A stretch of 64,000 bases of DNA from an uncultured Candidatus Binatia bacterium (GCA_965214905.1 OZ243984.1:2518003-2582002); one strand, 5' to 3'. Positions 10,256-29,157 are shown, numbered from the stretch's first letter. Notes: generated by a model from the sequence alone, not told the origin. Numbers and translations: made by a program.

Positions 10256-11197
10256 CTACATGCCGGTTTCCTTGTAGTAGCGCTCGGCGCCGGGATGGTA
10301 CGGGACGCCCAGGTCGACGTGCATCTTCGCGGGATTGAACTGCTTGAACATGCCGTGGGACCCGATCAGTTTCTCCTTGTTGCCGTGCAGCGCCTTGACC
10401 ACCTTGTACACGACCTCGTCGGGTGTCGTCGTGCTTGCGTTGACGACGAAGGCCGCGGCAAACACGTTGGTGGGGCCCATGACGCCGGGATAGAGCTTCG
10501 CCGGATGGAGGGTCGCGATGCTCCCGGCCGGGACGATGCTCCGCAACGCCGCCAGCGCCTCCGGCGTGTTGTCCATGGACAGGACGCGGATGCCGCCGAC
10601 CGCGGCGTGGGCCTGACGGGTGATGCCCGAGGTCATGGAAAAGTAGGCCGCGTCGTTCTTCCCTTCCATGAAGTCGCGGACCCCGCGTACGCCGTTGGGG
10701 ACGGGCACGCCGACCACGTCCTCGAAGCTCAAGCCCACGGTGGCCAGCACCGACCGGGCGTTCAGGGCTACGATCTTCTGCTTGGTGAACTTCGTGGGAA
10801 GCCGTTTGCCCTTGAGGTCGCTCAGCGTCTTGATGTCCGAGTCGTTGCGCACGTAGAACATGCTGTAGAGCGGGAACAGCACGGCCACGAGCCGTACCTT
10901 CTCCTGCTTTCTTCCATCGAACATGGCCTGTCCGAGATAGGCGAACGAGGTGGCGGCTACGTTCGAGATGGTGAAATCCAGTTCGCCGTTGTCGAGCAAC
11001 GGCAAGGTGACCACGGGTCCGCCCTGGGGCACCACGCGCATGTTCACGCTCCCGGCCTCGATGGCGACCTTCGCGACCCCGGCCCCGGTGGCGTACGCCA
11101 GCGAGCCCTGGGGGTTGGTGCCGATGCTCACGGTCTGCGCATGAACGCCCTGGGCCAGAAACACCAACGCCAATACACCGATTGCGAACCTTGTCAT
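10256..11197 (-). CDS. TRAP transporter solute receptor, TAXI family
   Basis: The product has a signal peptide (MTRFAIGVLALVFLAQGVHAQ) and a TAXI-like periplasmic binding domain. It is directly upstream of the fused permease. Confidence 0.8.
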   Translation of the reverse strand: MTRFAIGVLALVFLAQGVHAQTVSIGTNPQGSLAYATGAGVAKVAIEAGSVNMRVVPQGGPVVTLPLLDNGELDFTISNVAATSFAYLGQAMFDGRKQEKVRLVAVLFPLYSMFYVRNDSDIKTLSDLKGKRLPTKFTKQKIVALNARSVLATVGLSFEDVVGVPVPNGVRGVRDFMEGKNDAAYFSMTSGITRQAHAAVGGIRVLSMDNTPEALAALRSIVPAGSIATLHPAKLYPGVMGPTNVFAAAFVVNASTTTPDEVVYKVVKALHGNKEKLIGSHGMFKQFNPAKMHVDLGVPYHPGAERYYKETGM

Positions 11198-17418: not shown

Positions 17419-18513
17419 CTATGCCCTCCTCAACAGGTTGTATATCTGGCTTGACCCTCGGTTGCGAACCAGGGGTTTGCGCCGGCTGGAGATGTTCTCG
17501 TAGTTCAACCCCATAGTCAACGGCGCCGGCTGTAGATCCAGCAACTGGTTGACCCCTTCATCGAACACGGCTTCGGGAATGCGGAGTTCCTCGCAGACCG
17601 AGTCACGCACCTCGGGCAAGTCATAGTATCCGCCTCGAGGTGATAGCTTCTCGAAGATCTGGTCAATGACTTCCCAAAGCCTTTGTTGAGTCGCCTTGTC
17701 CGTCATATCCGGTTCACAAAAGTATATCGTGAAAGGGGAGGCGGAAGACGGTTCAATCGATAACTGCACATACCAGTCGTGCGGTGGAGAGTTGTCCACG
17801 CAGGGCGAATAGCTCTTCAAAAAATCGCACCCCTCGATGGTAGTAGAGTCTCTCGCGATGTTCAAAAGACGAAGGCTTACCAACCGATCAACGATAGACC
17901 TGAAAAGCGGTACCCTGATGCGGACACCCGGCAAGGCCCAATTTATCACCTTTTCTTGCAAGGCGTCCTCTATCTTCTTTGCCACTCCTCCCTGGAAACT
18001 TTCCCGGATGGTGTTTGCGATAGAGTCTGCCTTTTCGGCAAAGGTCGGTTCGAGCAGCCTTCGGAGGTACCCCTCCTGCTCAAGCTTGCCAGTTTCCACG
18101 GTGGGACGCCAAATACACCCTATCTCAAGGTGTTTCTGTACCACAGCTCGAAGGTTGTCGTAGGTCTCGATGTGAACGCTGGCCATAACACGCCGCAATT
18201 CCATGTGCTTACGGCTGTCCACCAGGTACATCACCTCTTTGCCTCGATCCGTAAGTTCGTATGCTCTTTTGGCCGAATTCGCGAACCCGAAATGAACCAA
18301 CTCACGGCAGACCTTTTCGCCAACGGTCTCGAAAGTTCCCCTCGGTTCAGGCAGTAGAAGCCGAAGAGCCTTGTTGCTGACGTATTTTCGAACGGAACGG
18401 GAGATAGTCTCCTCCTGTTCTTCTCTACGCGCGGTCAAGGGAAGACAGCCTAAGACCCTCAACCCGATGTAATGGTAACTTATATCGGAGATGTTGTAAC
18501 TAGATATGTTCAT
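17419..18513 (-). CDS. hypothetical protein (364 aa), possible winged-helix region
   Basis: No recognisable catalytic motif was found. The start overlaps the upstream gene stop (18510-18513) and the G+C is low. The stop TAG at 17419-17421 is immediately followed by GGAGGG-GTG of the next ORF. Confidence 0.45.
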   Translation of the reverse strand: MNISSYNISDISYHYIGLRVLGCLPLTARREEQEETISRSVRKYVSNKALRLLLPEPRGTFETVGEKVCRELVHFGFANSAKRAYELTDRGKEVMYLVDSRKHMELRRVMASVHIETYDNLRAVVQKHLEIGCIWRPTVETGKLEQEGYLRRLLEPTFAEKADSIANTIRESFQGGVAKKIEDALQEKVINWALPGVRIRVPLFRSIVDRLVSLRLLNIARDSTTIEGCDFLKSYSPCVDNSPPHDWYVQLSIEPSSASPFTIYFCEPDMTDKATQQRLWEVIDQIFEKLSPRGGYYDLPEVRDSVCEELRIPEAVFDEGVNQLLDLQPAPLTMGLNYENISSRRKPLVRNRGSSQIYNLLRRA

Positions 18514-19292
18514 CTTCGGCCGCTTGCCTCTCTAAACTTGGCCAGTAGATCCGTGCAGTCTCCGTTAAGCTGTCGCAGTTGTCGGCTCAAGGCCAAGGTC
18601 TGCAGGCCGCCGACGGCTTTCAGGACTATGGTATCTTCCGAGTGAAATCCACACCGGTTGGTTAGCCAAGTTTCGTTCAAGGCACGGGATAGACTGTTTA
18701 GTCCTACACAGAATTCCTCGAATTGATCCGTGGTTTCAGTAAGCAAGGGGATGCCTTTGTGAATTTCGGCGTTCATTCTCCAGGCGCTATCAATAAGAAC
18801 CGGCAGAGGCCGCACACCCGGCGCAATCGGATGGACGCCCAACCCTAAACAAGCGGCAAGCCCGCTTTCCTCAAAGGAAGTACTGGACATAAACGCAGGC
18901 AACACCTCTCGCATCAGTAGGGTAGGGTTAAAGGCCAGGTAATCCAGAATCTTGGCGAAGAAAATGACTATCTCATTTTTCTCCGTGGGATTTGCGGGGC
19001 GGTTTTTGATCTCCACAACGGCGACCAGATCCGAGGTTTGCGCCACGATGTCAACTTCGTGATGAACGCCAGACGCCGTGTCCAGCCCCTCCCCAAGCCA
19101 CATTTCTCGCTCTTGGGAGATTGTCCAATCCGAGAGGTTTTTCACACAGCTTTCCCGAAAGCGCATCTCGAACCCTTGGTCGCCCGTCGGTTCCCGGTTG
19201 ATATGTTGCCATTCCGAGTTGACGAACAAGTAACAGCGCTTCAAAAACTTAAGTGCCGTATCGGGAAGATAACTATCTTTCTGGATGTCCAC
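18510..19292 (-). CDS. hypothetical protein with PD-(D/E)xK nuclease-like motif (…HHEVDIVAQ…VAVVEIKN…)
   Basis: The product is 260 aa. A D…ExK motif sits on predicted beta-strands. It is the first gene of a three-gene low-G+C cassette at the trailer end of the CRISPR array. Confidence 0.45.
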   Translation of the reverse strand: MDIQKDSYLPDTALKFLKRCYLFVNSEWQHINREPTGDQGFEMRFRESCVKNLSDWTISQEREMWLGEGLDTASGVHHEVDIVAQTSDLVAVVEIKNRPANPTEKNEIVIFFAKILDYLAFNPTLLMREVLPAFMSSTSFEESGLAACLGLGVHPIAPGVRPLPVLIDSAWRMNAEIHKGIPLLTETTDQFEEFCVGLNSLSRALNETWLTNRCGFHSEDTIVLKAVGGLQTLALSRQLRQLNGDCTDLLAKFREASGRR

Positions 19293-19768
19293 TTGGAGAT
19301 CCCCTCATTTTTGGATCAGATGACACCGAAGATTTCACGGTACCGGGGTTGCTCCATCAGCATGTGGGCAAACTTCTCGACCAGTGGACGGAGTCGGTGC
19401 TCGGGCCAGTTCGGAATAGGCTCGTAGAGCATCGACCCTTGGCGAAATAGCGAGTGCGTGCGGCTCTTGACCGTGCTCGCCTTCAGCCACCGGTCATGGC
19501 CCAAGCTCTCGCCCGCTGCACCGAGCAACGTTAGCAAGGCAATCGACAGCGCGCTGAGAAGCAGCATGCGGTCGCGGCGCTGCGGCGCGCAAATCGCTCT
19601 GGAACCGGCTTGCGTCACCCGGAAGGGCCTACACCGACAGGACGCGAAATGTTCAGAATACAAATCGACGTTATATTCAGTAAGTTACGCATCTATTCTA
19701 AAGAAAATTATGAGGGGACCCCTAATATCGGGCTGCTGATCTGAAATTCTACAGCCAATATAACAGAA

Positions 19769-20232
19769 GTTCAATGTAGTCGATGGGTAGCGGGGGAGAG
19801 CGCTCGCACCCGGGCCTGAAGCCTCGCGACGGCCCCGTTTCAATCCGCTCCCCCCGCCGAAGCGGGGGGAGACACGGCGCCGCAGGCGGAAACGACGCCG
19901 GCAGAGACGTTTCAATCCGCTCCCCCCGCCGAAGCGGGGGGAGACACGGAGGCGGAGTGGGAGCGGCAGTTCGGGGCCGGGTTTCAATCCGCTCCCCCCG
20001 CCGAAGCGGGGGGAGACATCGAGGGTGACGTGTCGCTCTCGATGGAAGATCTGTTTCAATCCGCTCCCCCCGCCGAAGCGGGGGGAGACTGTTTTGGGTG
20101 GGTGCGGTTGGATGCCGGAAGTAGTTTCAATCCGCTCCCCCCGCCGAAGCGGGGGGAGACCGGTGATTACGGCGGTTACCGGGAAGCCGGGGTCGGTTTC
20201 AATCCGCTCCCCCCGCCGAAGCGGGGGGAGAC
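19769..20232 (-). CRISPR. CRISPR array, 37-bp repeat (minus-strand read: gtctccccccgcttcggcggggggagcggattgaaac), 7 repeats (trailer-most degenerate), 6 spacers of 34-35 bp
   Basis: Perfect repeats lie at 19837, 19909, 19981, 20053, 20124 and 20196. A degenerate repeat lies at 19769-19801. The repeat contains a 10-bp palindromic stem and ends …ATTGAAAC in the cas-gene orientation, as is typical for type I-C. An AT-rich leader sits on the cas2 side. Confidence 0.95.
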
Positions 20233-20413: not shown

Positions 20414-20704
20414 CTACAAGATCAGCGGATCGTTCAAATTCACGGGCTCTTTTACCCCGTAGTGTTCCGTACTGTCCTTGACGTCTTCATCCAGATGATA
20501 GACTCTCAGGGAGTCCTGCTCGGGGTCGATCTCGTCCAGCAGGCGATTTTTGAGCGTAGCCCATTCGGTTCTTCCGACTTGACATTCAAAAACCGACTTT
20601 TGCACCCGGACCCCATAATCCTCGCACGCCCTTGCCACACGTCGGAGGCGTTTCTGCCCTACCTTGTCAGCGGTGGAGACGTCATAGGCGATCAGAATGA
20701 ACAT
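20414..20704 (-). CDS. cas2: CRISPR-associated endoribonuclease Cas2
   Basis: The product reads MFILIAYDVSTADKVGQKRLRRVARACEDYGVRVQKSVFECQV…, a classic Cas2 N-terminus. It begins 4 nt after the cas1 stop. Confidence 0.9.
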   Translation of the reverse strand: MFILIAYDVSTADKVGQKRLRRVARACEDYGVRVQKSVFECQVGRTEWATLKNRLLDEIDPEQDSLRVYHLDEDVKDSTEHYGVKEPVNLNDPLIL

Positions 20705-20708
20705 GGCG

Positions 20709-21788
20709 TTACTTGGGAATGAACGGGATATAATCGGGAATGTCGCCACGAAGCGTTCGGGCCAACAGCTTGGCCTGGATGCTGAACACCTGCCCGAGGC
20801 GGATGTTCCCCTTGAACAGAGCGTGCTTTATTTCCGTTTGCTTGCGACGCTGCCAGGTTTGGATAACTTCTTTTCTGCCTCGGTCGGTAAATTCCACTAC
20901 GCCTCCTTCTCGCTCTCGAAAGTGCCTGGGCTCGATTTGACGCCGGTTGATCAGGGTCAACGCCAATCGCTCCGCCAGACAGGGCCGGAACTCTTCCATC
21001 AGATCGAGGGCGCAGGCGGGCCTGCCCGCCCGCGTCGTATGGAGCCAGCCGACGTATGGGTCCAGTCCGGCGGTTGTCAATGCGGCCAGGCAATCGTGGC
21101 GGACCAGTGCATAGATGAAAGACAGCAGGCAGTTGATCCTGTCTCGTGGCGGCCGCCGGGTGCGGGTGAAGAATCGGAAGTCATTCCGTTGTTGCTTGAG
21201 CATGTGTTCGAACACGGAGAAATATACTTTGGCTCCGATGCCCTCCAGTCCCCGGATCGGGTCCAGCGTCGCCCGAAGGCTGGCACTTTGGTCGACCGGT
21301 GGGGCGTTTCCAGGCATGGACTTGGCCGCAAGTTGACGAATCAGTCGGGCAAGCTCGACCGCGGCGCCAGCCAATGCCACATGGTCCGATTCCTCATCCG
21401 CTTCCCGGGCGGACCGTAAGAGGTTGGAGCGCGAGTTTTGCAGCTTCCCGGCGACGATTTGCCGCGCGATGCGGGCCGCCTCCACGGGACTGTCAGCCGC
21501 CGCGTACTGAGCACGGCGCAGCAAGTAGCGCGTGTCGCCACTTCCCATCACCTGAGCCAGCAGGTAGCCGTTCTCCGTGTGGTAGTGGATCGCAACCTGA
21601 TGCTCCCAGCACAGGGCCATGGCGGGGGGCGTCACGACGACCTGTCCGAAGGCGCAGACGCTTTCCAGATGGTGGATCGGCAGGGTCAGGCGGGTTTGCT
21701 TTTCGACCTCGACCCGGAGCGTCAGATGATCCCGATGCACCACGGTTCCCGGCGTGGTCAGGTAGAGAGTGTTTTGAACGACGGCCAT
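20709..21788 (-). CDS. cas1: CRISPR-associated endonuclease Cas1 (type I-C-like)
   Basis: The 359-aa product begins MAVVQNTLYLTTPGTVVHRDHLTLRVE… and contains conserved Cas1 acidic and His residues. Confidence 0.9.
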   Translation of the reverse strand: MAVVQNTLYLTTPGTVVHRDHLTLRVEVEKQTRLTLPIHHLESVCAFGQVVVTPPAMALCWEHQVAIHYHTENGYLLAQVMGSGDTRYLLRRAQYAAADSPVEAARIARQIVAGKLQNSRSNLLRSAREADEESDHVALAGAAVELARLIRQLAAKSMPGNAPPVDQSASLRATLDPIRGLEGIGAKVYFSVFEHMLKQQRNDFRFFTRTRRPPRDRINCLLSFIYALVRHDCLAALTTAGLDPYVGWLHTTRAGRPACALDLMEEFRPCLAERLALTLINRRQIEPRHFREREGGVVEFTDRGRKEVIQTWQRRKQTEIKHALFKGNIRLGQVFSIQAKLLARTLRGDIPDYIPFIPK

Positions 21789-21829: not shown

Positions 21830-22480
21830 CTACTCCCCGGTTTCGAACACTCCCCGAGAGAGCCGCGCCAGCATGGGTGGAGCGCTGGTGATCTCTGGAA
21901 GGCAGTGGTCGAAAAGTGAACATTCCGAACATTGGGGCTTGTGGATCGCTTTAGGGACCGTTTCCTGTTCGATGAGCCGGTGCACGGCTTCAATGGCCTG
22001 CTCGGTGAGGCACCGCAGTTCTTGGGTAAATTCCACCTCTCGGCGGCGCTTGCTCTTGGCGTGGAAGATGGCGCCTCTCGAAACCTCGATCCCGAACATT
22101 TCTTCCAGGCACAGAGCCTGGGCGCAAAGCTGGGCGTCGTCGTTGTCGAACTTGCGGCGTTTGCCTTTCTTGAACTCAACCGGGGTCAGCGAGCCATCGG
22201 AACGACGTTCGACAATGTCGCACTTGCCGCTGAGCCCGAGTCGGTCCGACCACACGGGCAAGGCACGCAACAGGGTCACACCCCTGACGGTTTCATAGCC
22301 GGAAGTATCGGTCTGTTCGTGAACGCTATCGCCGATAACCGTGTGCTCGTTGGCATCTCGCCATCCTTCGACTGCCTTCAACGCTGCCCTGCGATGGCAG
22401 TAGAGGAAATCGTTGATGAGCGAGAGGGGAAACATCTCCCGCTCGACAGTGTCTGAAGAGCCGTCGGGGCAACGCTGCAT
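21830..22480 (-). CDS. cas4: CRISPR-associated exonuclease Cas4 (RecB-like nuclease with C-terminal Cys cluster)
   Basis: The product reads …FLYCHRRAALKAVEGW… and carries a C-terminal CSECSLFDHC Fe-S Cys motif. An alternative start exists at 22435. Confidence 0.85.
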   Translation of the reverse strand: MQRCPDGSSDTVEREMFPLSLINDFLYCHRRAALKAVEGWRDANEHTVIGDSVHEQTDTSGYETVRGVTLLRALPVWSDRLGLSGKCDIVERRSDGSLTPVEFKKGKRRKFDNDDAQLCAQALCLEEMFGIEVSRGAIFHAKSKRRREVEFTQELRCLTEQAIEAVHRLIEQETVPKAIHKPQCSECSLFDHCLPEITSAPPMLARLSRGVFETGE

Positions 22481-22481
22481 T

Positions 22482-22886
22482 CTATTTTGCGGTTTTACCG
22501 GCGTCGAACCGCATTCTTCTGCCGGCCTTTAACAGAACAGCCGGCAATCGCTTCAGTTCCTCACTGCGTGGGTCCACCTCGAACCCACCGGATTCCAGGG
22601 CGGTAACGCCAAGTAACGGCTCCACCCCCTCATCGCCGTACACGACGGTCCCGCCAACGACTTCTCCTTGAAACTCGATCTCGGCGATGGTGATGTCCAA
22701 GGCGACGGACTTGCCATCCGCAAGCACGTACTCTCGGCGGCCTCTCGGTTCAAGCCCGATTGCTTCGAGGCAGGCTCTCGGTACAAGCGAGTCGAACGCA
22801 CCGGTACCAACTAGAAACTTGCTGGTCCAGCTCCGGCTCGGGTTCGCGGGATTGCGGATCGTGACATCAACGTAAGTCGCGCCCAT
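22482..22886 (-). CDS. hypothetical small protein, retropepsin-like (clan AA aspartyl-protease-like) fold candidate, translationally coupled to cas4
   Basis: The product is 134 aa: FLVGTGAFDSLVPRACLEAIGL…ADGKSV…LLGVTALESGGFEVDP. This resembles retropepsin-like domains, but with GTGA in place of DTGA. Its stop (22482-22484) lies 1 nt from the cas4 ATG (22478-22480). Confidence 0.45.
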   Translation of the reverse strand: MGATYVDVTIRNPANPSRSWTSKFLVGTGAFDSLVPRACLEAIGLEPRGRREYVLADGKSVALDITIAEIEFQGEVVGGTVVYGDEGVEPLLGVTALESGGFEVDPRSEELKRLPAVLLKAGRRMRFDAGKTAK

Positions 22887-23042
22887 TCTGGTTCCCTTCG
22901 GGTTGGTTACGGCTTCACCGAACCCCGTTGCGGTTGCAATCGCATTCTACGCCGACCTGAAATGACCGGAGAAAGGGTTGCTGAAACAGAACGAGGCAGC
23001 ATCGGGATCAGCGATACTTGGCCTTGAAATTCCAGATCAGCG

Positions 23043-25391
23043 TTACAGAATGATCCCTCCGTCACGCTGCGACTCCAGCAAGGGGAGCAGGCCCTTCCAG
23101 TAACCAAGAAACTCGTCGTAGCAGTTTGGTTGAATGCCTACCAACTCACTGTCACGACTCAGTGGTCGGGTGACGGGCAGATCGTTCTGTCTGGTTTTCC
23201 AGACCTGCACGCTATGACGCATGATTTCTGCGGGCGACGGAAACTCCTTGGGATCCCTCGCTTGAAATCGCTCTATCAAGTCCTGACTGACAAGCACCGT
23301 GAGTGTATCCTCGGCGATGATCCGGCAGCGGTTGGCAACTTCGGGATAGTCCCCATCTTCTTCGGCTTCAATGATATGCTGAGCCCCGATCTCGGTCCCG
23401 CCAAAACCCGAAATGACTTCTCGACGCAAGGCTTCGGTGCAGTGTTGCGGACTAAGAAGTTCGCCGTGTTCGATAAACATCTTGTCAAGCACCTTTCGCG
23501 AACTTTTGAACCCGGGGTGCAGGTTCAGAAAACCGGATTCGTCGTGTGCGAAATCCCATACCTCCGCTTGAGTGTATTCGCCGTTTCGATTGACCCGTCC
23601 GGCGACCTGGAGAAGGCTGGTCAGGCTGCAGCGTTCACGAAAGGCGGTACGAAAGGAAAAGTCCACCCCGGCTTCTATGCAACTCGTGGCTACCAGGATC
23701 CAGTCCCTGTCGCCTCTATTGCCGAGACGCTGCCTGATTCGGGAAACAATTGCCGATCGATGCGCAGGACAGATTGCCGTAGAGAGATGCTCTACTCGTG
23801 AGTCTGTCTCGCCCGTCCATTCACGACCTGGATAGAATCGACTCCACAGAAATTTGGCCAGGACAGCGGCAGATTGCACCGTGTTCAGAATTATCAACCG
23901 AGGCCCTGGTTTGTCCTTCTCAAGAACAAAGTCCGCCAACTTTTCGAGGGTCAACCGATCGTCGTGCCTCTTGAGAGATACCCGGTGGCCTTCGGAAGCG
24001 TCGGCCTGATCCTTCGATTCCCCAACGACGAGTGGAGGTACGGAGGGCCGTCGCTCAACCGGAACGAAGTCCTCCAGTTCCCAAAAACGTGGCAGCGAAC
24101 CACTGGCGAGGACGACGTGGCAGTTCCAGTCCTCGCATAGTTCTTGCAGCCAACGCCAGTGCTGAGGCCACAGCGGCGCCGGCACGGCTGCGTGTGCTTC
24201 GTCTACGAAGACTGCTGAACCCGGTACTTGATGGAGCTTGCGGAGCGCAGCGGTCCGATTCGCGGCGAGCGTCTCGAAAAACTGCACCGCCGTGGTCACG
24301 ACGATTGGCGCTTCCCAACGCTGCGCCAACTGCCGCAACTCTCTCCATTGTTCACCGCTGAACTCGACTCTGTGATGGTGAGCGGCAACCACCGATTCAG
24401 GGTCTTCACCGGGCAACACCAATGCCTTGCGATAAACGTCAACAGATTGATCGATGATGTTGGTGAACGGCAGGACCACGAACACCCGGCGCAAGCCGCG
24501 TTTATCAGCGACCCGCAGGAGATGTGCCATTACGGCAGAGGTCTTGCCGGTTCCGACCGGACTTTCACAGGCGACCATCCGTTCGCCGTTCTCAAGTTCC
24601 CGGTCGCGACAGGCTCGGTAGACGCTCTGTCGCAACCGAAGCCGTGTCGTCTCCGCTGGGGACGTGCTGGATTGGTTGCGTCCGAGGTTTTCTACGTAGC
24701 GGTCCAAGGCTTGTAAACGTTCGGCAGCTCTCAGTAGGGCGCCGTCCAACTCCCGCTCTTCCCGATAATGTTGCGCGGTGTCGCTATGATCTCCGTCCAC
24801 AAGACAGGATAGGGCTAGGCGACGGACCAAGCCGGTAAAGCAAGGTCGGGGATCGCCGGCGGGAGGGGGTTTGACGGGTTTGACGACATCGGCATGTTGA
24901 TGGAGATAGCCGTCAAGCAGTTTGTCCGTTCTCTCCCAGGACACTGCGTCCATGCCGTTCAGCTCTTTTCCGTCACGCAAGAAGAGGGATCGTTCTGTTC
25001 CTTCGTCATCAAATTTTGCTTTTGCTCTCTCCTTAGGCAGTGACGGCAAGCCAATGTGATGGCTGAAGCAGCATATCGCCGCTTCACCCAGCTTCCGCTT
25101 CAGCAGGTGAGCGGTGCCTGCCTCGACATGATTGAAACCTTCCTCATTGGGGCGGTTGCGGTACAGAATGTCCTGGAAGATTTCGTCCAACTTGCCGAGA
25201 TCGTGATAAGTGGCGGCCAATTCCACCACCGCCTGAAAAAATTCCCGCTCTGAATATGTCACCGCCGCTTCGCGAGCAAACTTGGCTGCAAGGCGGCGTA
25301 CGTTGGCTACATGTTCACGGTAGCTCTGCCCCGGTGAGCCTCGTCGGGCACTATGGGCCAGAGCGGAATGGTTGGAGGACGACATGCTCAT
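23043..25391 (-). CDS. cas3: CRISPR-associated helicase/nuclease Cas3 (HD domain + SF2 helicase)
   Basis: The 782-aa product has an N-terminal HD motif (…TYHDLGKLDE…) and a VFVDEAH DExH box. Its start overlaps the cas7 stop (TAATG). Confidence 0.9.
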   Translation of the reverse strand: MSMSSSNHSALAHSARRGSPGQSYREHVANVRRLAAKFAREAAVTYSEREFFQAVVELAATYHDLGKLDEIFQDILYRNRPNEEGFNHVEAGTAHLLKRKLGEAAICCFSHHIGLPSLPKERAKAKFDDEGTERSLFLRDGKELNGMDAVSWERTDKLLDGYLHQHADVVKPVKPPPAGDPRPCFTGLVRRLALSCLVDGDHSDTAQHYREERELDGALLRAAERLQALDRYVENLGRNQSSTSPAETTRLRLRQSVYRACRDRELENGERMVACESPVGTGKTSAVMAHLLRVADKRGLRRVFVVLPFTNIIDQSVDVYRKALVLPGEDPESVVAAHHHRVEFSGEQWRELRQLAQRWEAPIVVTTAVQFFETLAANRTAALRKLHQVPGSAVFVDEAHAAVPAPLWPQHWRWLQELCEDWNCHVVLASGSLPRFWELEDFVPVERRPSVPPLVVGESKDQADASEGHRVSLKRHDDRLTLEKLADFVLEKDKPGPRLIILNTVQSAAVLAKFLWSRFYPGREWTGETDSRVEHLSTAICPAHRSAIVSRIRQRLGNRGDRDWILVATSCIEAGVDFSFRTAFRERCSLTSLLQVAGRVNRNGEYTQAEVWDFAHDESGFLNLHPGFKSSRKVLDKMFIEHGELLSPQHCTEALRREVISGFGGTEIGAQHIIEAEEDGDYPEVANRCRIIAEDTLTVLVSQDLIERFQARDPKEFPSPAEIMRHSVQVWKTRQNDLPVTRPLSRDSELVGIQPNCYDEFLGYWKGLLPLLESQRDGGIIL

Positions 25392-26320
25392 TAGCCATCG
25401 AGCGCATAGTCTTGGTACTTGCCGCAGTTCGAGAATGTTCTACTGGACCCGAATCGGACAGGGTTGTCCTTGATTGCGTCCCATGTCGGAATTTCGTAGT
25501 CGTCCAGCGATTCGGAGGGCTTGTCCATCGCCGTCTTCTTGCGAGGCGTCAGGGCATCCAACAGGGCGAAATCGGACAACGAACCGCGTCGCTCATTGTG
25601 GGTGAAGACGTGAGCGTGAATGATCTCAACCATTGTTCGGACAACGGAGCGGGTGTGCGGATAAGCCAGAGGCAAAAGCTCAAGCATCAGCTTAACGTCG
25701 GTCTCCGTGCATCCCGTCTTGTGGGCCAAACCGGGATTGACAAAGAAAGGAACCGTATAAACTCCATGTTTGACGACGCGAAACGCCATGGGCGCCATGC
25801 CGCGGTCCTTGCCTGTTTCAACGCCTGATTTGCTCGTCCATGTTGAATACTCGATGTCTATCGGAGCCACGGAAACGCCGACACCAAAGTGTGCCACCCC
25901 GGTACGGATTGTGTCTCCACTGCCTTCTTCGAGGAAGGTGTTCCCAAACAGGCGTCCGTCCCAATAGGCTTCCTTGAACCCTTGAGAAAGTCGATGGTTA
26001 CCTTCCTTTTCCATGAGCTTGCGAATTTCTTCGCGGTTTCGCCCTCGCTGCTCGAGAATCTTAAATTCGTCGTCCGCCTGAATCTCCAACTTTTCTTTGA
26101 CTTCCTGCCACACCACGCCCTCCTTTTCCAGAACAAGATCGCGGAGCTTCCGTTTGAAAGACACCGGCGAGATCTCGCCCTTACCGTCCGGGCGCTGGCG
26201 AGGGGAGCCTTCGCGCTCGGGGTCGCCGTTGGGGTTGGATTTCCGTACCTCGATCACAAGCAGGCCAGTGATGCGAGGGACTTGCGTTTCGGTCCTGGTA
26301 CCGTGTTCCTGTGTGGACAT
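25391..26320 (-). CDS. cas7: Cas7 (Csd2/Cas7c family, type I-C)
   Basis: The product reads MSTQEHGTRTETQVPRITGLLVIEVRKSNPNGDPEREGSPRQ…PVSFKRKLRDLV, matching the Csd2 N-terminal signature NPNGDP…. Confidence 0.8.
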   Translation of the reverse strand: MSTQEHGTRTETQVPRITGLLVIEVRKSNPNGDPEREGSPRQRPDGKGEISPVSFKRKLRDLVLEKEGVVWQEVKEKLEIQADDEFKILEQRGRNREEIRKLMEKEGNHRLSQGFKEAYWDGRLFGNTFLEEGSGDTIRTGVAHFGVGVSVAPIDIEYSTWTSKSGVETGKDRGMAPMAFRVVKHGVYTVPFFVNPGLAHKTGCTETDVKLMLELLPLAYPHTRSVVRTMVEIIHAHVFTHNERRGSLSDFALLDALTPRKKTAMDKPSESLDDYEIPTWDAIKDNPVRFGSSRTFSNCGKYQDYALDG

Positions 26321-26324
26321 AGGG

Positions 26325-28514
26325 TTAGGCTTCCGTTTCGGTTTTCGGATGATCGGCGAGGTAGCCGAGAAGGAGTTGAGCCTTGTGAACGTCTTCCATG
26401 CGATCCGGCAGTTCGGCAACGTCGATGTGGCGTTCACGCTCGCCCATCTGACGAACAAACCAGTGAATCAATCCTGCGTCCTTACCCGAGTAGGTGTCTG
26501 CCCAGCCTTTGTACGGCCGGACGCGCTCGGCGAGGCGAGCAAGCGCCGACAGCGGATTGTCGAGGGCAAGGTTGAACAGTGAGTTTCCAAGCAACTCGGA
26601 TGGCGCTTCGACGTCGCCATTTTTTCGCTTCTGATCCGGGGTACGAACCCACTTGCAGTACTGCAGATGCAGGCCGTCGGCCAAGGCTAGCAGTCGCCCT
26701 ATCTGATAGGTCGAGTCTTGCATAAACTGATCCTTTGAATGTCCGAGTTGTTGAAGGAGAATGCCGATAAGCGAGATCGTCTTCCTGCACTGCCAACGAA
26801 CGTTGTCGCTCAGGTCTTTCCAACGACAACTGGTCTTGACACTTCCAAGGCCGACAAGAACCGGAGATGTCCGATGCAAAAGGAGCGAGAAACACAGGCA
26901 TGTCTTGTTCCGTGATATCGGCCCATCGGAAAAGAACAGGTCGTAGGCATCCGATGTGGTGACAGCACGTTGAAAGGATGAGGCGAAGCCGTTTTTGGCA
27001 TCTGATCTCCAGACACGATTAATGACTGACGTCAGGTCGAGCGGATGAGGCACAAAATGAGACTTCCAGTCGGCCTTCATTTCTTTCTTGTTAGGAAACC
27101 AGATGGAAACAGGCGGTGTGTTGGCGGCTCCAGTCTTCCATTCCTGAGCCGCGCGAATGATGTCCTGCACACGGAACTGGCGATGCAGGCTGACTTGCTT
27201 GCGTCCCTTGTCGATTTCACATAGAGTCAGAAGTCGAGCCGTCAAGTTCGGTTGTTCCTGTAATTTGCCCTCAAGGGCGTTAAGCACGGACCGTGTTCGT
27301 TCGGCAAAATCCGCATCTCCAAATCTTTGTGCCTCGCCACCGAATAGTTCGGCCAACTGTTCCTGGAAGTCTGGCGCTTGCTCCAGGTAGGCGATCAGCA
27401 GGTCGTTCCGGTTTCTGCCTGGAATTCCTCGCCATGTCAAACCTTCCTCTCTCTTCTCGTCGCCGAGGTAAAGCAGTGCGTTGTTCATTCTCTGTACGAC
27501 CGGTGTAGATGCCGGAAACTGCATGGATCCCTTCAGTCCGTAGCGACGAAGTGCCTTGATCTCGTCCGTGTTTACAGAGAAAAGCTTCACGTCACCGAGG
27601 TTTGCGACTTTGGGGGTCGGGTATTTGTCTTGCAAGAGACCTTGGTTTCCAAATGCGTCCAATTCACCCTGGTCGGATTGAGGTTTGACTGTATCGTGTC
27701 TGAGCATGAACTCGTTTATTGCCTTGCTGGTGTCCGGGTGAGCGACGGCTTTATGATTGAGATCGATCTTGGCCACATCGAAATATACGGGTTGGTTGGT
27801 GTTCTTAGCGTTCTTATCTTGCTTGGTCTTTTCCGACCAGTAGGCGTCCGAGCCCAGCTTGGCCATGCGCTTTCTCCAGTCGAGCACACCGAACAAGCCT
27901 TGTTGTATCAGGCAGAGATCCTCGCGATCAGCGGTTGCTGACGTGTGGAGAAAGGTGTCGGTCAGATTCCGGCTGAACCGATTCAGATCGAGTTCGGTGC
28001 GCCCCGCTACGTCCAGCAGTCGTGTAAAGTTGCTCAGTCCCGGTGTTGCCGTGCCAAGCATTTTTTGAAGCTCGTGAACCAACTTGACGACCGAGCGCCT
28101 GAACTGGCTGCACTGGGAGCTCGTGAACGGACGCGGCTGGGATAACTCGACCATCTTCGCAAGGGCATTGCAAATCTGCCTGGTCGGTGGGTTCTTTTCC
28201 TTCCACAAACCACAAAGCCGTTCCAAAACGGGGGTTAATCGGGTAGATGTGGATGTCGAATCAAGATGGCGAAGCGGTGTTGGGATGTTGAGTCCGGGAA
28301 AGCTGGAGCCCGATGAGCCGTGCTCCACGCGAAATAGACGGGCCGCCTTGTCACCTGGAACGAACTCCACTTCGGCTGGTCCGGCATCGTCGTTCAGTCG
28401 CACGATCAACAATTTCCTGGTTTTTGCCATCGGCTTGATACGCGGGTGTCGCGATGGCGGAACGATGCCCACTCGATCCATAGCCTGCGAGACGAGATAG
28501 AGCTCGTTAAGCAT
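26325..28514 (-). CDS. cas8c: Cas8c (Csd1-like large subunit)
   Basis: The product is 729 aa. It sits between cas5 and cas7 with the overlapping and coupled junctions typical of Cascade operons. Confidence 0.7.
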   Translation of the reverse strand: MLNELYLVSQAMDRVGIVPPSRHPRIKPMAKTRKLLIVRLNDDAGPAEVEFVPGDKAARLFRVEHGSSGSSFPGLNIPTPLRHLDSTSTSTRLTPVLERLCGLWKEKNPPTRQICNALAKMVELSQPRPFTSSQCSQFRRSVVKLVHELQKMLGTATPGLSNFTRLLDVAGRTELDLNRFSRNLTDTFLHTSATADREDLCLIQQGLFGVLDWRKRMAKLGSDAYWSEKTKQDKNAKNTNQPVYFDVAKIDLNHKAVAHPDTSKAINEFMLRHDTVKPQSDQGELDAFGNQGLLQDKYPTPKVANLGDVKLFSVNTDEIKALRRYGLKGSMQFPASTPVVQRMNNALLYLGDEKREEGLTWRGIPGRNRNDLLIAYLEQAPDFQEQLAELFGGEAQRFGDADFAERTRSVLNALEGKLQEQPNLTARLLTLCEIDKGRKQVSLHRQFRVQDIIRAAQEWKTGAANTPPVSIWFPNKKEMKADWKSHFVPHPLDLTSVINRVWRSDAKNGFASSFQRAVTTSDAYDLFFSDGPISRNKTCLCFSLLLHRTSPVLVGLGSVKTSCRWKDLSDNVRWQCRKTISLIGILLQQLGHSKDQFMQDSTYQIGRLLALADGLHLQYCKWVRTPDQKRKNGDVEAPSELLGNSLFNLALDNPLSALARLAERVRPYKGWADTYSGKDAGLIHWFVRQMGERERHIDVAELPDRMEDVHKAQLLLGYLADHPKTETEA

Positions 28515-29157
28515 AGAACAGCATTCCCTTATGGACTTTGATCCCCTGGCTGAAGCTTGGCTTTACGCGACCTTGCTGCGGGCGGTCGAATACCATGCGC
28601 AACATCGATGGCAGCTCATGACTCTCGGTCTCGCACACCCGTGTTCCCGAGCGAAACGGTCCTACGTAATCCGGGACGAATTCCTTCCATCCAAGGCAGG
28701 GCGTACAAAACCACCGGCCGTTCCCCAATCGACGGTTGAAGACATCCTGAAAGGCATGGGGCGAACATTGACCGTCCGGTGCCTTTGCTCGTTCGCCGTT
28801 TGGCCCGCGATTCCAGTCCACCTCGGCGTAGAGCCGATAGCAAACGTTCACCAGGACCATAGCGAATAACTGGAACGATGCGCGTTTTCTTCTTGCGTCA
28901 GATGCACGCAAGGGTCCTCCATAGTTGGTAACGTAATGATGAAACTGGACCGGCCGACAAATTTCTACCTTGACCGGCCTCACGTTGACGGATTTCCAAC
29001 GAAGGACGGACTCGAAGATGCCTTTCGCGGCGCTGAAGGTGGGCGCTACATAGGAAACCGGGGAGGAACCGGTATCCGGCCGGGTCCACATCGCGGTTGG
29101 GCCGGAGATTTCGAATTGGACTGCGTAGGATTTCATCGTTTCTCCATATGCATGCAT
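28507..29157 (-). CDS. cas5: Cas5 (Cas5c/Cas5d-like, type I-C)
   Basis: The 216-aa product reads …FEISGPTAMWTRPDTGSSPVSYVAPTFSAAKGIFESVLRWKSV…, matching the Cas5d N-terminal pattern. No cas6 is present in the locus. Confidence 0.75.
   Translation of the reverse strand: MHAYGETMKSYAVQFEISGPTAMWTRPDTGSSPVSYVAPTFSAAKGIFESVLRWKSVNVRPVKVEICRPVQFHHYVTNYGGPLRASDARRKRASFQLFAMVLVNVCYRLYAEVDWNRGPNGERAKAPDGQCSPHAFQDVFNRRLGNGRWFCTPCLGWKEFVPDYVGPFRSGTRVCETESHELPSMLRMVFDRPQQGRVKPSFSQGIKVHKGMLFYA

Follow-up and report, generated by a model that had tools for sequence, protein, structure and literature searches.

We have analyzed a stretch of 64,000 nt of DNA from an uncultured Candidatus Binatia bacterium (GCA_965214905.1, OZ243984.1:2518003-2582002), the whole of which we call the window, and in particular a small gene for a retropepsin-like protein that lies within a set of CRISPR-associated (cas) genes followed by an array of clustered regularly interspaced short palindromic repeats (CRISPR). 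Read along the minus strand, the order of the operon is cas5 - cas8c - cas7 - cas3 - protease open reading frame (ORF) - cas4 - cas1 - cas2 - CRISPR (Table 1). Thus the gene lies between cas3 and cas4, as had been stated in a preliminary description of the locus. It is closely apposed to the second of these: the minus strand reads AAA TAG A ATG CAG, in which the stop codon of the protease gene (22484-22482) and the ATG of cas4 (22480-22478) are separated by 1 nt, the spacing originally reported. We regard this ATG as the true start of cas4, because the N-terminal extension MQRCP...ERE.FPLS is kept in two related loci (L037 and L007), where the gap between the protease stop and cas4 is 5 and 20 nt, respectively. 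No promoter or terminator signal around the protease gene, whether with respect to cas3 or to cas4, rose above shuffled controls. Most likely the protease gene and cas4 share a transcript and are coupled in translation.

The ORF is a bona fide retropepsin-like gene, one that is slowly evolving and encodes a small soluble protein. It scores 72.0 bits against the NCBIfam profile TIGR03698 (clan_AA_DTGF; cut-off 57.35), residues 5-110 being aligned with the 107-position model, and it also passes the cut-offs of two Pfam families, PF13975 (31.3, cut-off 28.2) and PF13650 (24.4, cut-off 24.3). An AlphaFold2 model built on 22 homologues is of moderate confidence, with a mean predicted local distance difference test score (pLDDT) of 65; the core of residues 1-94 lies at ~68-90 and the C-terminus is poor. 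On comparison of this model with the PDB using Foldseek the top matches were the proteases of simian immunodeficiency virus (SIV), human immunodeficiency virus 1 (HIV-1) and feline immunodeficiency virus (FIV), with a probability of 1.00, E values of 5e-5 to 4e-4 and target-normalized template modeling scores of 0.55-0.70. Both the family profiles and the predicted fold therefore uphold the initial view that this is a retropepsin-like small protein. The sole solved structure reached by sequence is that of the ApRick protease of Rickettsia (PDB 5c9d; E = 0.004), with the DTGA motifs aligned. The conserved core of the protein comprises residues 1-120, the last 14 residues being variable, and in members of the subfamily a further conserved segment, the C-terminal tail (K/R)RLPAVLLK, follows the part matched by TIGR03698.

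A search of 5.8 billion proteins found 1578 homologues, the best 120 of which are 77-100% identical and 120-140 aa in length; a profile of more distant members reached at least 6882 clusters, and 1798 representatives of a 50%-identity library were matched at E ≤ 0.001. Across Latescibacterota, Gemmatimonadota, Binatia, Gammaproteobacteria and other groups the members of this tight subfamily show 70-91% identity. Across 16 copies of the protease gene the ratio of non-synonymous to synonymous substitution rates (dN/dS) is 0.04-0.12 with a median of 0.077, and dS is ~1-2 (~1.3). With so high a dS the low ratio shows that the amino acid sequence is conserved by selection, and not by recent transfer. 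Compared with other cas loci the dN of the protease (0.06-0.13) equals that of Cas1 and is below those of Cas4 and Cas2, and effector proteins encoded in those loci are in many cases <30% identical. That we are dealing with a chance ORF, or the shadow frame of a GC-rich region, has nothing to recommend it except the small size of the gene. Given the matches to curated hidden Markov models (HMMs), the fold, the thousands of homologues and a dN/dS of ~0.08, we regard its probability as negligible.

Table 1. Features of the CRISPR-Cas locus in the window, listed in the direction of the minus strand
Feature	Position	Strand	Profile match or remark
cas5 (216 aa)	28507-29157	minus	TIGR02593 26.8 versus cut-off 17.8; Cas5c model 42.8, under cut-off
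Large subunit, divergent Cas8c (729 aa)	26325-28514	minus	weak TIGR01863 match, 20 bits; no Pfam match
cas7 (Csd2-like)	25391-26320	minus	TIGR02589 116 bits, under cut-off 182
cas3 (782 aa; HD domain and helicase)	23043-25391	minus	TIGR01596 49.8 versus 43.45; Pfam Cas3-like_C_2, DEAD, HD
Spacer of 156 nt, cas3 stop to protease start	22887-23042	minus	
Retropepsin-like gene (clan AA, TIGR03698), 134 aa	22482-22886	minus	ATG start, TAG stop
Codon 27 (GGT, Gly), in place of the catalytic Asp codon	22806-22808	minus	GAT in relatives
Junction TAG-A-ATG (protease stop, one base, cas4 start)	22478-22484	minus	
cas4 (216 aa)	21830-22480	minus	TIGR00372 124.8 bits versus cut-off 65
cas1, type I-C (359 aa)	20709-21788	minus	TIGR03640 412.7 bits versus cut-off 385
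cas2 (111 aa)	20414-20749	minus	TIGR01573 67.9 bits versus cut-off 24.5
CRISPR array	19837-20232	minus	6 identical 37-nt repeats, 5 spacers of 34-35 nt

Association with type I CRISPR loci

How often is this gene found beside CRISPR loci? In a scan of one genome per species of GTDB, 159 relatives were found to be encoded, and 79 loci were fetched. A locus was taken as linked where cas genes and/or an array lay within 10 kb, using tblastn with the Cas proteins of the window and of loci L001, L003, L005 and L030, together with an array finder. The species-representative relatives are 70-89% identical to the window protein, with two copies per genome being frequent, and those fetched come from Latescibacterota, Gemmatimonadota, Binatia, Gammaproteobacteria/Pseudomonadales, Thermodesulfobacteriota, Spirochaetia, Acidobacteriota and Opitutales. 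CRISPR linkage was found for 34 of the 79 loci (43%), comprising 28 with cas genes, 18 of which also have an array, and six with an array only; set against a generous background of 3% this corresponds to a binomial p of ~1e-30. Further linked examples were found in metagenomes. The linked systems are of subtype I-C with the order cas3-5-8-7-4-1-2, I-C with the order of the window, I-B, and I-D, the last assigned from the signatures of Cas10d, Csc2 and Cas3'.

In 26 of the 28 loci with cas genes the protease gene is co-oriented with these, and it is separated from them by 1-54 nt in the window, L007, L037, L008, L078 and L003. Its position falls into a small number of classes. It may lie directly upstream of the first cas gene, as in ~13 loci (e.g. 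L006, L009, L045, L063 and L078), a class that includes sites 1-2 kb upstream of I-D and I-B operons, or 3-8 kb upstream (four loci). It may be found within the operon at the junction of the effector and adaptation modules, between cas7 and cas4 (L007 and L037), cas4 and cas1 (L008) or cas3 and cas4 (the window). Lastly, in ~10 loci (e.g. L014, L020, L025, L026, L054 and L062) it is placed 0.1-2 kb past the last repeat of the array. Some loci have more than one copy. There is one at each end of the CRISPR-Cas locus, in direct orientation, in L045 with L033, L030 with L014, and L044, where the second copy is a fragment; L016 and L008 are two copies in direct orientation, one upstream of the operon and the other inside it; and tandem copies lie upstream of the operon in L063 and L035.

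The block protease-cas4-cas1-cas2 is common to the window, L007 and L037, as seen in the similarity of the downstream flank and the conserved N-terminus of cas4. The effector module of the window, on the other hand, is nearest to those of L078 and L021, where the protease gene sits upstream of cas5. Thus the position of the gene shifts even between closely related systems. The link of the subfamily with loci of types I-B, I-C and I-D, where it occupies module boundaries in an operon-like manner, is strong without being exclusive.

Such an arrangement raises the possibility that the conserved 360-nt gene serves mainly as portable homology at module junctions, through which recombination could exchange cas modules or cassettes. 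The boundary positions, the three loci with a copy at each end in direct orientation, and the union in the window of an L007/L037-type protease-cas4-cas1-cas2 block with an L078-type effector module would all fit with this. However, copies within one genome have a DNA identity of just 72-80% (93% for the L008/L016 pair), with a similarity that ends at the edges of the coding sequence, and the protein has been conserved even though synonymous changes are close to saturation, so that selection acts on the protein and not the DNA. We therefore think this explanation very improbable. A small mobile cassette was likewise rejected, since the similarity of paralogues from one genome is limited to the 120-codon coding sequence plus ~20 nt of the ribosome-binding-site region. 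A phage, plasmid or anti-CRISPR origin was discarded as well; no homologue was matched in the viral, plasmid and phage collections IMG/VR, PLSDB and INPHARED.

A number of the loci have individual features. P0271, an ENA contig of 1711 bp, carries a relative that is at least 90% identical and has the aspartate, and its frame continues into pieces of Cas2 (…DKVGQKRFRRVARACED…NDPLIL), which indicates a variant of the locus from which cas4, cas1 and most of cas2 have been deleted right after the protease gene. In L003 a 179-aa protein (10388-10927) lies between the protease and cas6b, and proteins 58-65% identical to it are encoded ahead of the cas genes of L023 and L027; the L003 protein has no match in Pfam or PADLOC. 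Regulators of the HTH-WYL-WCX type directly adjoin the protease in L015/L019 (10433-11533) and L121 (7735-8712), the order in L121 being WYL - transposase - protease - I-B operon. Among the names of the metagenome-assembled genomes RHO, IRC, COS, APA and 'ROBB21' correspond to sponge hosts studied by Robbins et al. 2021, from which a sponge origin for these genomes may be supposed. CRISPR genes are enriched in sponge symbionts, and lateral transfer among the symbionts has been proposed (Robbins et al. 2021, PMC8163846).

Replacement of the catalytic aspartate

Codon 27 of the window gene is GGT (the reverse complement of acc at 22806-22808 of the plus strand), giving the motif GTGA. It aligns with the aspartate of the homologues and of 5c9d, in agreement with the earlier reading of GTGA in place of DTGA. 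One base differs from the aspartate codon, plus-strand position 22807, which is C where T is expected. Retropepsin-fold proteins work as homodimers in which each subunit contributes one catalytic aspartate. This copy is therefore a member of the family by descent that is predicted to be proteolytically dead.

In a first alignment DTGA was present in 21 of 21 homologues. Among 90 full-length copies from the fetched loci the aspartate is kept in 84, the six others having G (three), N, E or Y, and two more copies read DAG or DTE. For the best 120 clusters the sequence is DTG in 109, and the triad is disrupted in 11 that belong to different sub-lineages; in a sister clade, by comparison, it is DTG in 120 of 120 clusters (11/120 versus 0/120, Fisher p = 7.7e-4). 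The aspartate has been lost to G, N, E, A and Y in ORFs that are otherwise well conserved and full length. The members of the window's own 90%-identity cluster have the aspartate. Thus the substitution first noted for this copy stands, but it is not a trait of the family.

Contexts were fetched for three variants lacking the aspartate, and all three are cas-linked: in a degraded I-C locus an ETG variant lies between cas4 and cas1, an NTG variant is located upstream of cas3 in a complete I-C locus, and a GTS variant upstream of an I-B locus. The first of these loci (L117/L118) has the order cas3-cas4-protease(ETG)-56 aa-cas1-cas2, without cas5, cas8 and cas7, and several transposase genes lie around it. 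Within the subfamily the aspartate is lost in ~5 of 42 linked and 3 of 48 unlinked copies, numbers that are too small for any claim.

The closest comparison is provided by L122, an independent short-read contig with a Cas1 that is 100% identical, the same TAG-A-ATG junction, and GAT as codon 27. The identity of Cas1 and of the junction, together with the GAT codon, shows that D27G is very recent and specific to the strain. The two protease genes differ at 9 of ~395 positions, three of the changes being non-synonymous (D27G, E58K and K73Q) and six synonymous. Might the glycine codon simply be an error of assembly or sequencing, the true sequence being GAT and the protein a normal, active representative of its family? 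One base alone, A to G, is involved, and both the closest independent contig and the members of the 90% cluster have GAT. Yet the gene has eight other differences from L122, six of them synonymous, which indicate a distinct haplotype and make a pure assembly error unlikely, and like substitutions occur independently in other assemblies. We consider such an error very improbable.

A different possibility is that copies lacking the aspartate are pseudo-enzymes under selection, kept as non-catalytic binders or as dominant-negative subunits that pair with an active paralogue in heterodimers and so disable it. The independent losses in well-conserved full-length ORFs are consistent with this, and some of the dead copies share a locus or a genome with an intact one. 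Thus at L078 an E variant accompanies a D copy, and the G variant L052 comes from the genome of L078; L045 (DTE) faces L033 (DTG) across one locus. The tandem copies of L063 both lack the aspartate and are nevertheless intact. Against this, D27G is so recent (9 of ~395 nt from L122) that time for selection cannot be demonstrated, an HMM search of all ORFs found no second protease copy in the 64-kb window, and the losses are scattered tips and not an old conserved clade, as expected of sporadic inactivation. We consider a selected pseudo-enzyme to be rather improbable. The present copy is more likely to have just lost its function than to serve as a non-catalytic or dominant-negative subunit; as a homodimer the D27G protein would be proteolytically dead, and those non-catalytic roles are the most that could be left to it.

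Accessory gene or passenger

We suggest that type I loci with Cas4 (I-B, I-C and I-D) have repeatedly taken up a gene of this subfamily as an accessory, co-oriented with the cas genes and placed at module boundaries, whether before the first cas gene, at the junction of the effector and adaptation modules, or past the array. The window would represent one outcome of this process, in which a protease-cas4-cas1-cas2 block of the L007/L037 type became joined to a different, L078-like effector module, cas5-cas8-cas7-cas3. Typical members would be active homodimeric proteases that carry out limited proteolysis in trans. Their target is likely to be a conserved protein of the host or the invader and not a Cas protein, because the protease remains 80-90% identical beside effectors that are <30% identical and beside differing types of Cas1. 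Overall, that type I CRISPR loci have recruited this gene as an accessory protease, one that is proteolytically dead in the present copy and whose function we infer, is a proposal that we hold to be evenly poised. A stronger form of it would make the gene a true functional accessory of Cas4-containing type I systems, a dimeric aspartic protease adding a proteolytic step for which subunits without the aspartate provide built-in dominant-negative regulators. The step might be cleavage of an inhibitor made by the invader or of a conserved host regulator, or the tuning of the coupled adaptation complex. This stronger form we think unlikely.

The chief alternative is a passenger gene, having a cellular role unrelated to CRISPR, flanking hot spots of integration or recombination and being carried along with cas cassettes between symbionts that share a habitat. 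Several observations favor it and weigh against recruitment as an accessory. In 45 of the 79 loci (57%) there is no cas gene or array within 10 kb, and the neighbors in these unlinked loci are mostly metabolic genes (carboxyltransferases, solute-binding proteins, amidohydrolases and oxidoreductases), with occasional WYL regulators. Clustering of all ORFs within 5 kb revealed no universal partner gene, the top clusters being shadow frames of the protease gene itself. In some genomes a conserved YbjQ-protease synteny precedes an I-B or I-C locus, and in others unrelated genes, so that with this pair kept beside a variable flank the protease looks like a resident gene next to a variable region. 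The boundary positions, and the three loci with a copy at each end, also speak for a passenger.

Most I-C loci, moreover, lack the gene. A metagenome search with the Cas1 of the window gave 27 I-C loci; the protease was found in one of four with a Cas1 that is 79-84% identical (L093, upstream of cas3), and in none of ~20 with a Cas1 that is 38-56% identical. The protease is therefore dispensable for I-C, and is not a core component. A survey of this kind had been proposed at the outset: homologues are kept in many related cas loci, as expected of a real gene, but at varying positions and in a minority of I-C loci. In addition, the aspartate has been lost repeatedly in cas-linked copies, including those of intact cas loci, so that catalysis is not needed to keep a CRISPR locus. 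PADLOC contains no model that matches the protease; known defence components were rejected on the same grounds for the 179-aa neighbor in L003 and for two further genes of the window described below. Lastly, the cas island is compositionally foreign. The GC content over ~16-29.2 kb is 52-63% compared with 65-71% in the flanks, and at third codon positions (GC3) it is 0.60-0.75 inside the island compared with 0.88-0.91 in the neighboring host genes. These low values show that the island has been acquired.

A passenger would, however, leave several facts unexplained. The gene has been placed repeatedly, independently and in the same orientation in loci of three subtypes, with gaps of 1-50 nt and within operons between cas7 and cas4, cas4 and cas1, and cas3 and cas4. 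Purifying selection on the copies embedded among cas genes is as strong as that on Cas1, and the sister clade is also found in defence islands. We regard the passenger explanation as doubtful, while giving it more weight than any of the other alternatives to an accessory gene.

TIGR03698 is a catalogued family, and it is the placement of its known fold in a CRISPR accessory setting that, as far as our searches of the literature show, is new for type I. Accessory proteases are known for type III systems, where they provide outputs of signaling, while type I has been thought to be nearly without accessory genes. Here a gene of 120 aa, as well conserved as Cas1, is found at the module junctions of I-B, I-C and I-D systems in several phyla, with a sister clade in other defence islands, and this makes it a concrete candidate for an added level of proteolysis in type I immunity or, more broadly, in defence islands. 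The natural alleles without the aspartate, and the sibling strain that has the aspartate in the same locus, are ready-made controls. Even as a passenger the gene would be a useful marker for the shuffling of cas modules among microbial symbionts that live together.

Related proteases and neighboring genes

The closest known proteins are the small prokaryotic clan AA proteases of TIGR03698, PF13975 and PF13650, which have the same size and a single domain, with DTG(A) in nearly all relatives; the GTGA of this copy sets it apart. The retroviral proteases of HIV-1, SIV and FIV share the fold, but the window protein is 13-22% identical to them, is not part of a polyprotein and has no viral or plasmid context. 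ApRick, or APRc, has a DTGA motif that aligns with ours; unlike the present protein APRc is attached to a membrane-anchored protein.

Proteases are associated with CRISPR in type III systems, namely Csx29/TPR-CHAT (Craspase) and the Lon-SAVED protein CalpL. With these, too, a protease is encoded within a CRISPR locus, which hints at an output or a level of regulation through proteolysis, but their folds are unrelated (caspase-like and Lon), and sensor domains link them with the effector or with cyclic oligoadenylate. In contrast, the gene described here encodes a bare 120-aa domain without a sensor, and the type I loci in which it lies are not known to produce a second messenger. A further kind of known retropepsin-like protease, of the RimB type, partners ATP-grasp RimK ligases. 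One member of the sister clade (L088) follows genes for a 7TM-transglutaminase and an ATP-grasp protein, whereas there is no ATP-grasp gene next to the CRISPR-linked copies or in the cas island of the window. A fusion of Lon to CARF has also been described (bioRxiv 10.1101/270033).

The literature that we searched contains no description of a retropepsin or aspartic protease in type I systems. To this extent the preliminary description was right to hold that the gene is not part of any described type I system, but its interpretation needs qualification, both for the 45 unlinked loci and because a small retropepsin-domain protein has been listed among the accessories of type III-D and variant type III cassettes in archaea of the Sulfolobales (PMC3973734). 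That protein (Asp_prot, Saci_1895; ~100 aa, in or next to CRISPR interference cassettes) has a setting in common with ours, compared by description, but belongs to archaeal type III systems where ours are bacterial and of types I-B, I-C and I-D. The same source found minimal evidence for type I-specific non-core genes (PMC3973734).

The sister clade is 55-69% identical, and we have examined the contexts of three of its members. One (L084-L087) is found amid HicA/HicB toxin-antitoxin pairs. The second (L088) lies between the 7TM-transglutaminase/ATP-grasp pair and an ATPase that matches PDC-M07A, a PADLOC candidate. The third (L089) is in an island with HmaA, a HEC-01A-like ATPase and a TIR protein, where a second copy of the protease comes directly after the ATPase. 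Although the sample is small, this is suggestive of a tie between the wider family and defence islands. In L089 (8001-16423) and L088 (8001-10234) the proteases adjoin AAA_15/AAA_21 ATPases, those that match HEC-01A and PDC-M07A, and an ATPase with a retropepsin may be an unrecognized pairing. Two single cluster representatives of the family, rare long proteins, extend beyond the protease domain. In P0124 the N-terminal protease domain is followed by an AbiJ_NTD4-like region (29 bits, below the cut-off), and in P0164 by a HATPase_c_4 domain.

The effector module of the window (23043-29157) is itself an atypical variant of I-C, with the order cas5-cas8-cas7-cas3 and with L078 and L021 as its nearest relatives; the placing of cas3 after cas7 is uncommon for I-C. 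The models for Cas5c, Cas7/Csd2 and Cas8c (Csd1) all score under their cut-offs with these proteins, and the top full-length model for Cas3 is the I-G-type Cas3g (123 bits, under its cut-off). The Cas8c is 66% identical to the product of the gene at the same position in L078. The start of cas7 is probably the ATG of MSTQEHG at 26320, judging from the translation, the ORF as listed extending to 26458.

The spacer between cas3 and the protease gene is not conserved in other loci. It contains the sequence 'GCGATTGCAAC', which resembles the 3' end of the array repeat (in the minus-strand reading, ATTGAAAC), and a CreTA-like element or mini-array was therefore considered. It was rejected: blastn-short with the repeat gave only 10-nt chance matches, with no CRISPR-repeat-like element in 22887-23042 and no match of >10 nt outside the array. 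A 124-aa ORF on the minus strand (19685-20059) is not a gene, being a translation of the CRISPR repeats themselves (repeating SPRFGGGSGLK). Beyond the trailer end of the array, still in the low-GC island, there are two minus-strand genes (17419-19292) that overlap by 4 nt and have no match in Pfam, NCBIfam or PADLOC. The first encodes 260 aa (18510-19292) and has a faint YraN/PD-(D/E)xK-like motif; its partner encodes 364 aa (17419-18513). The pair may form an uncharacterized two-gene module for defence or as a cas accessory.

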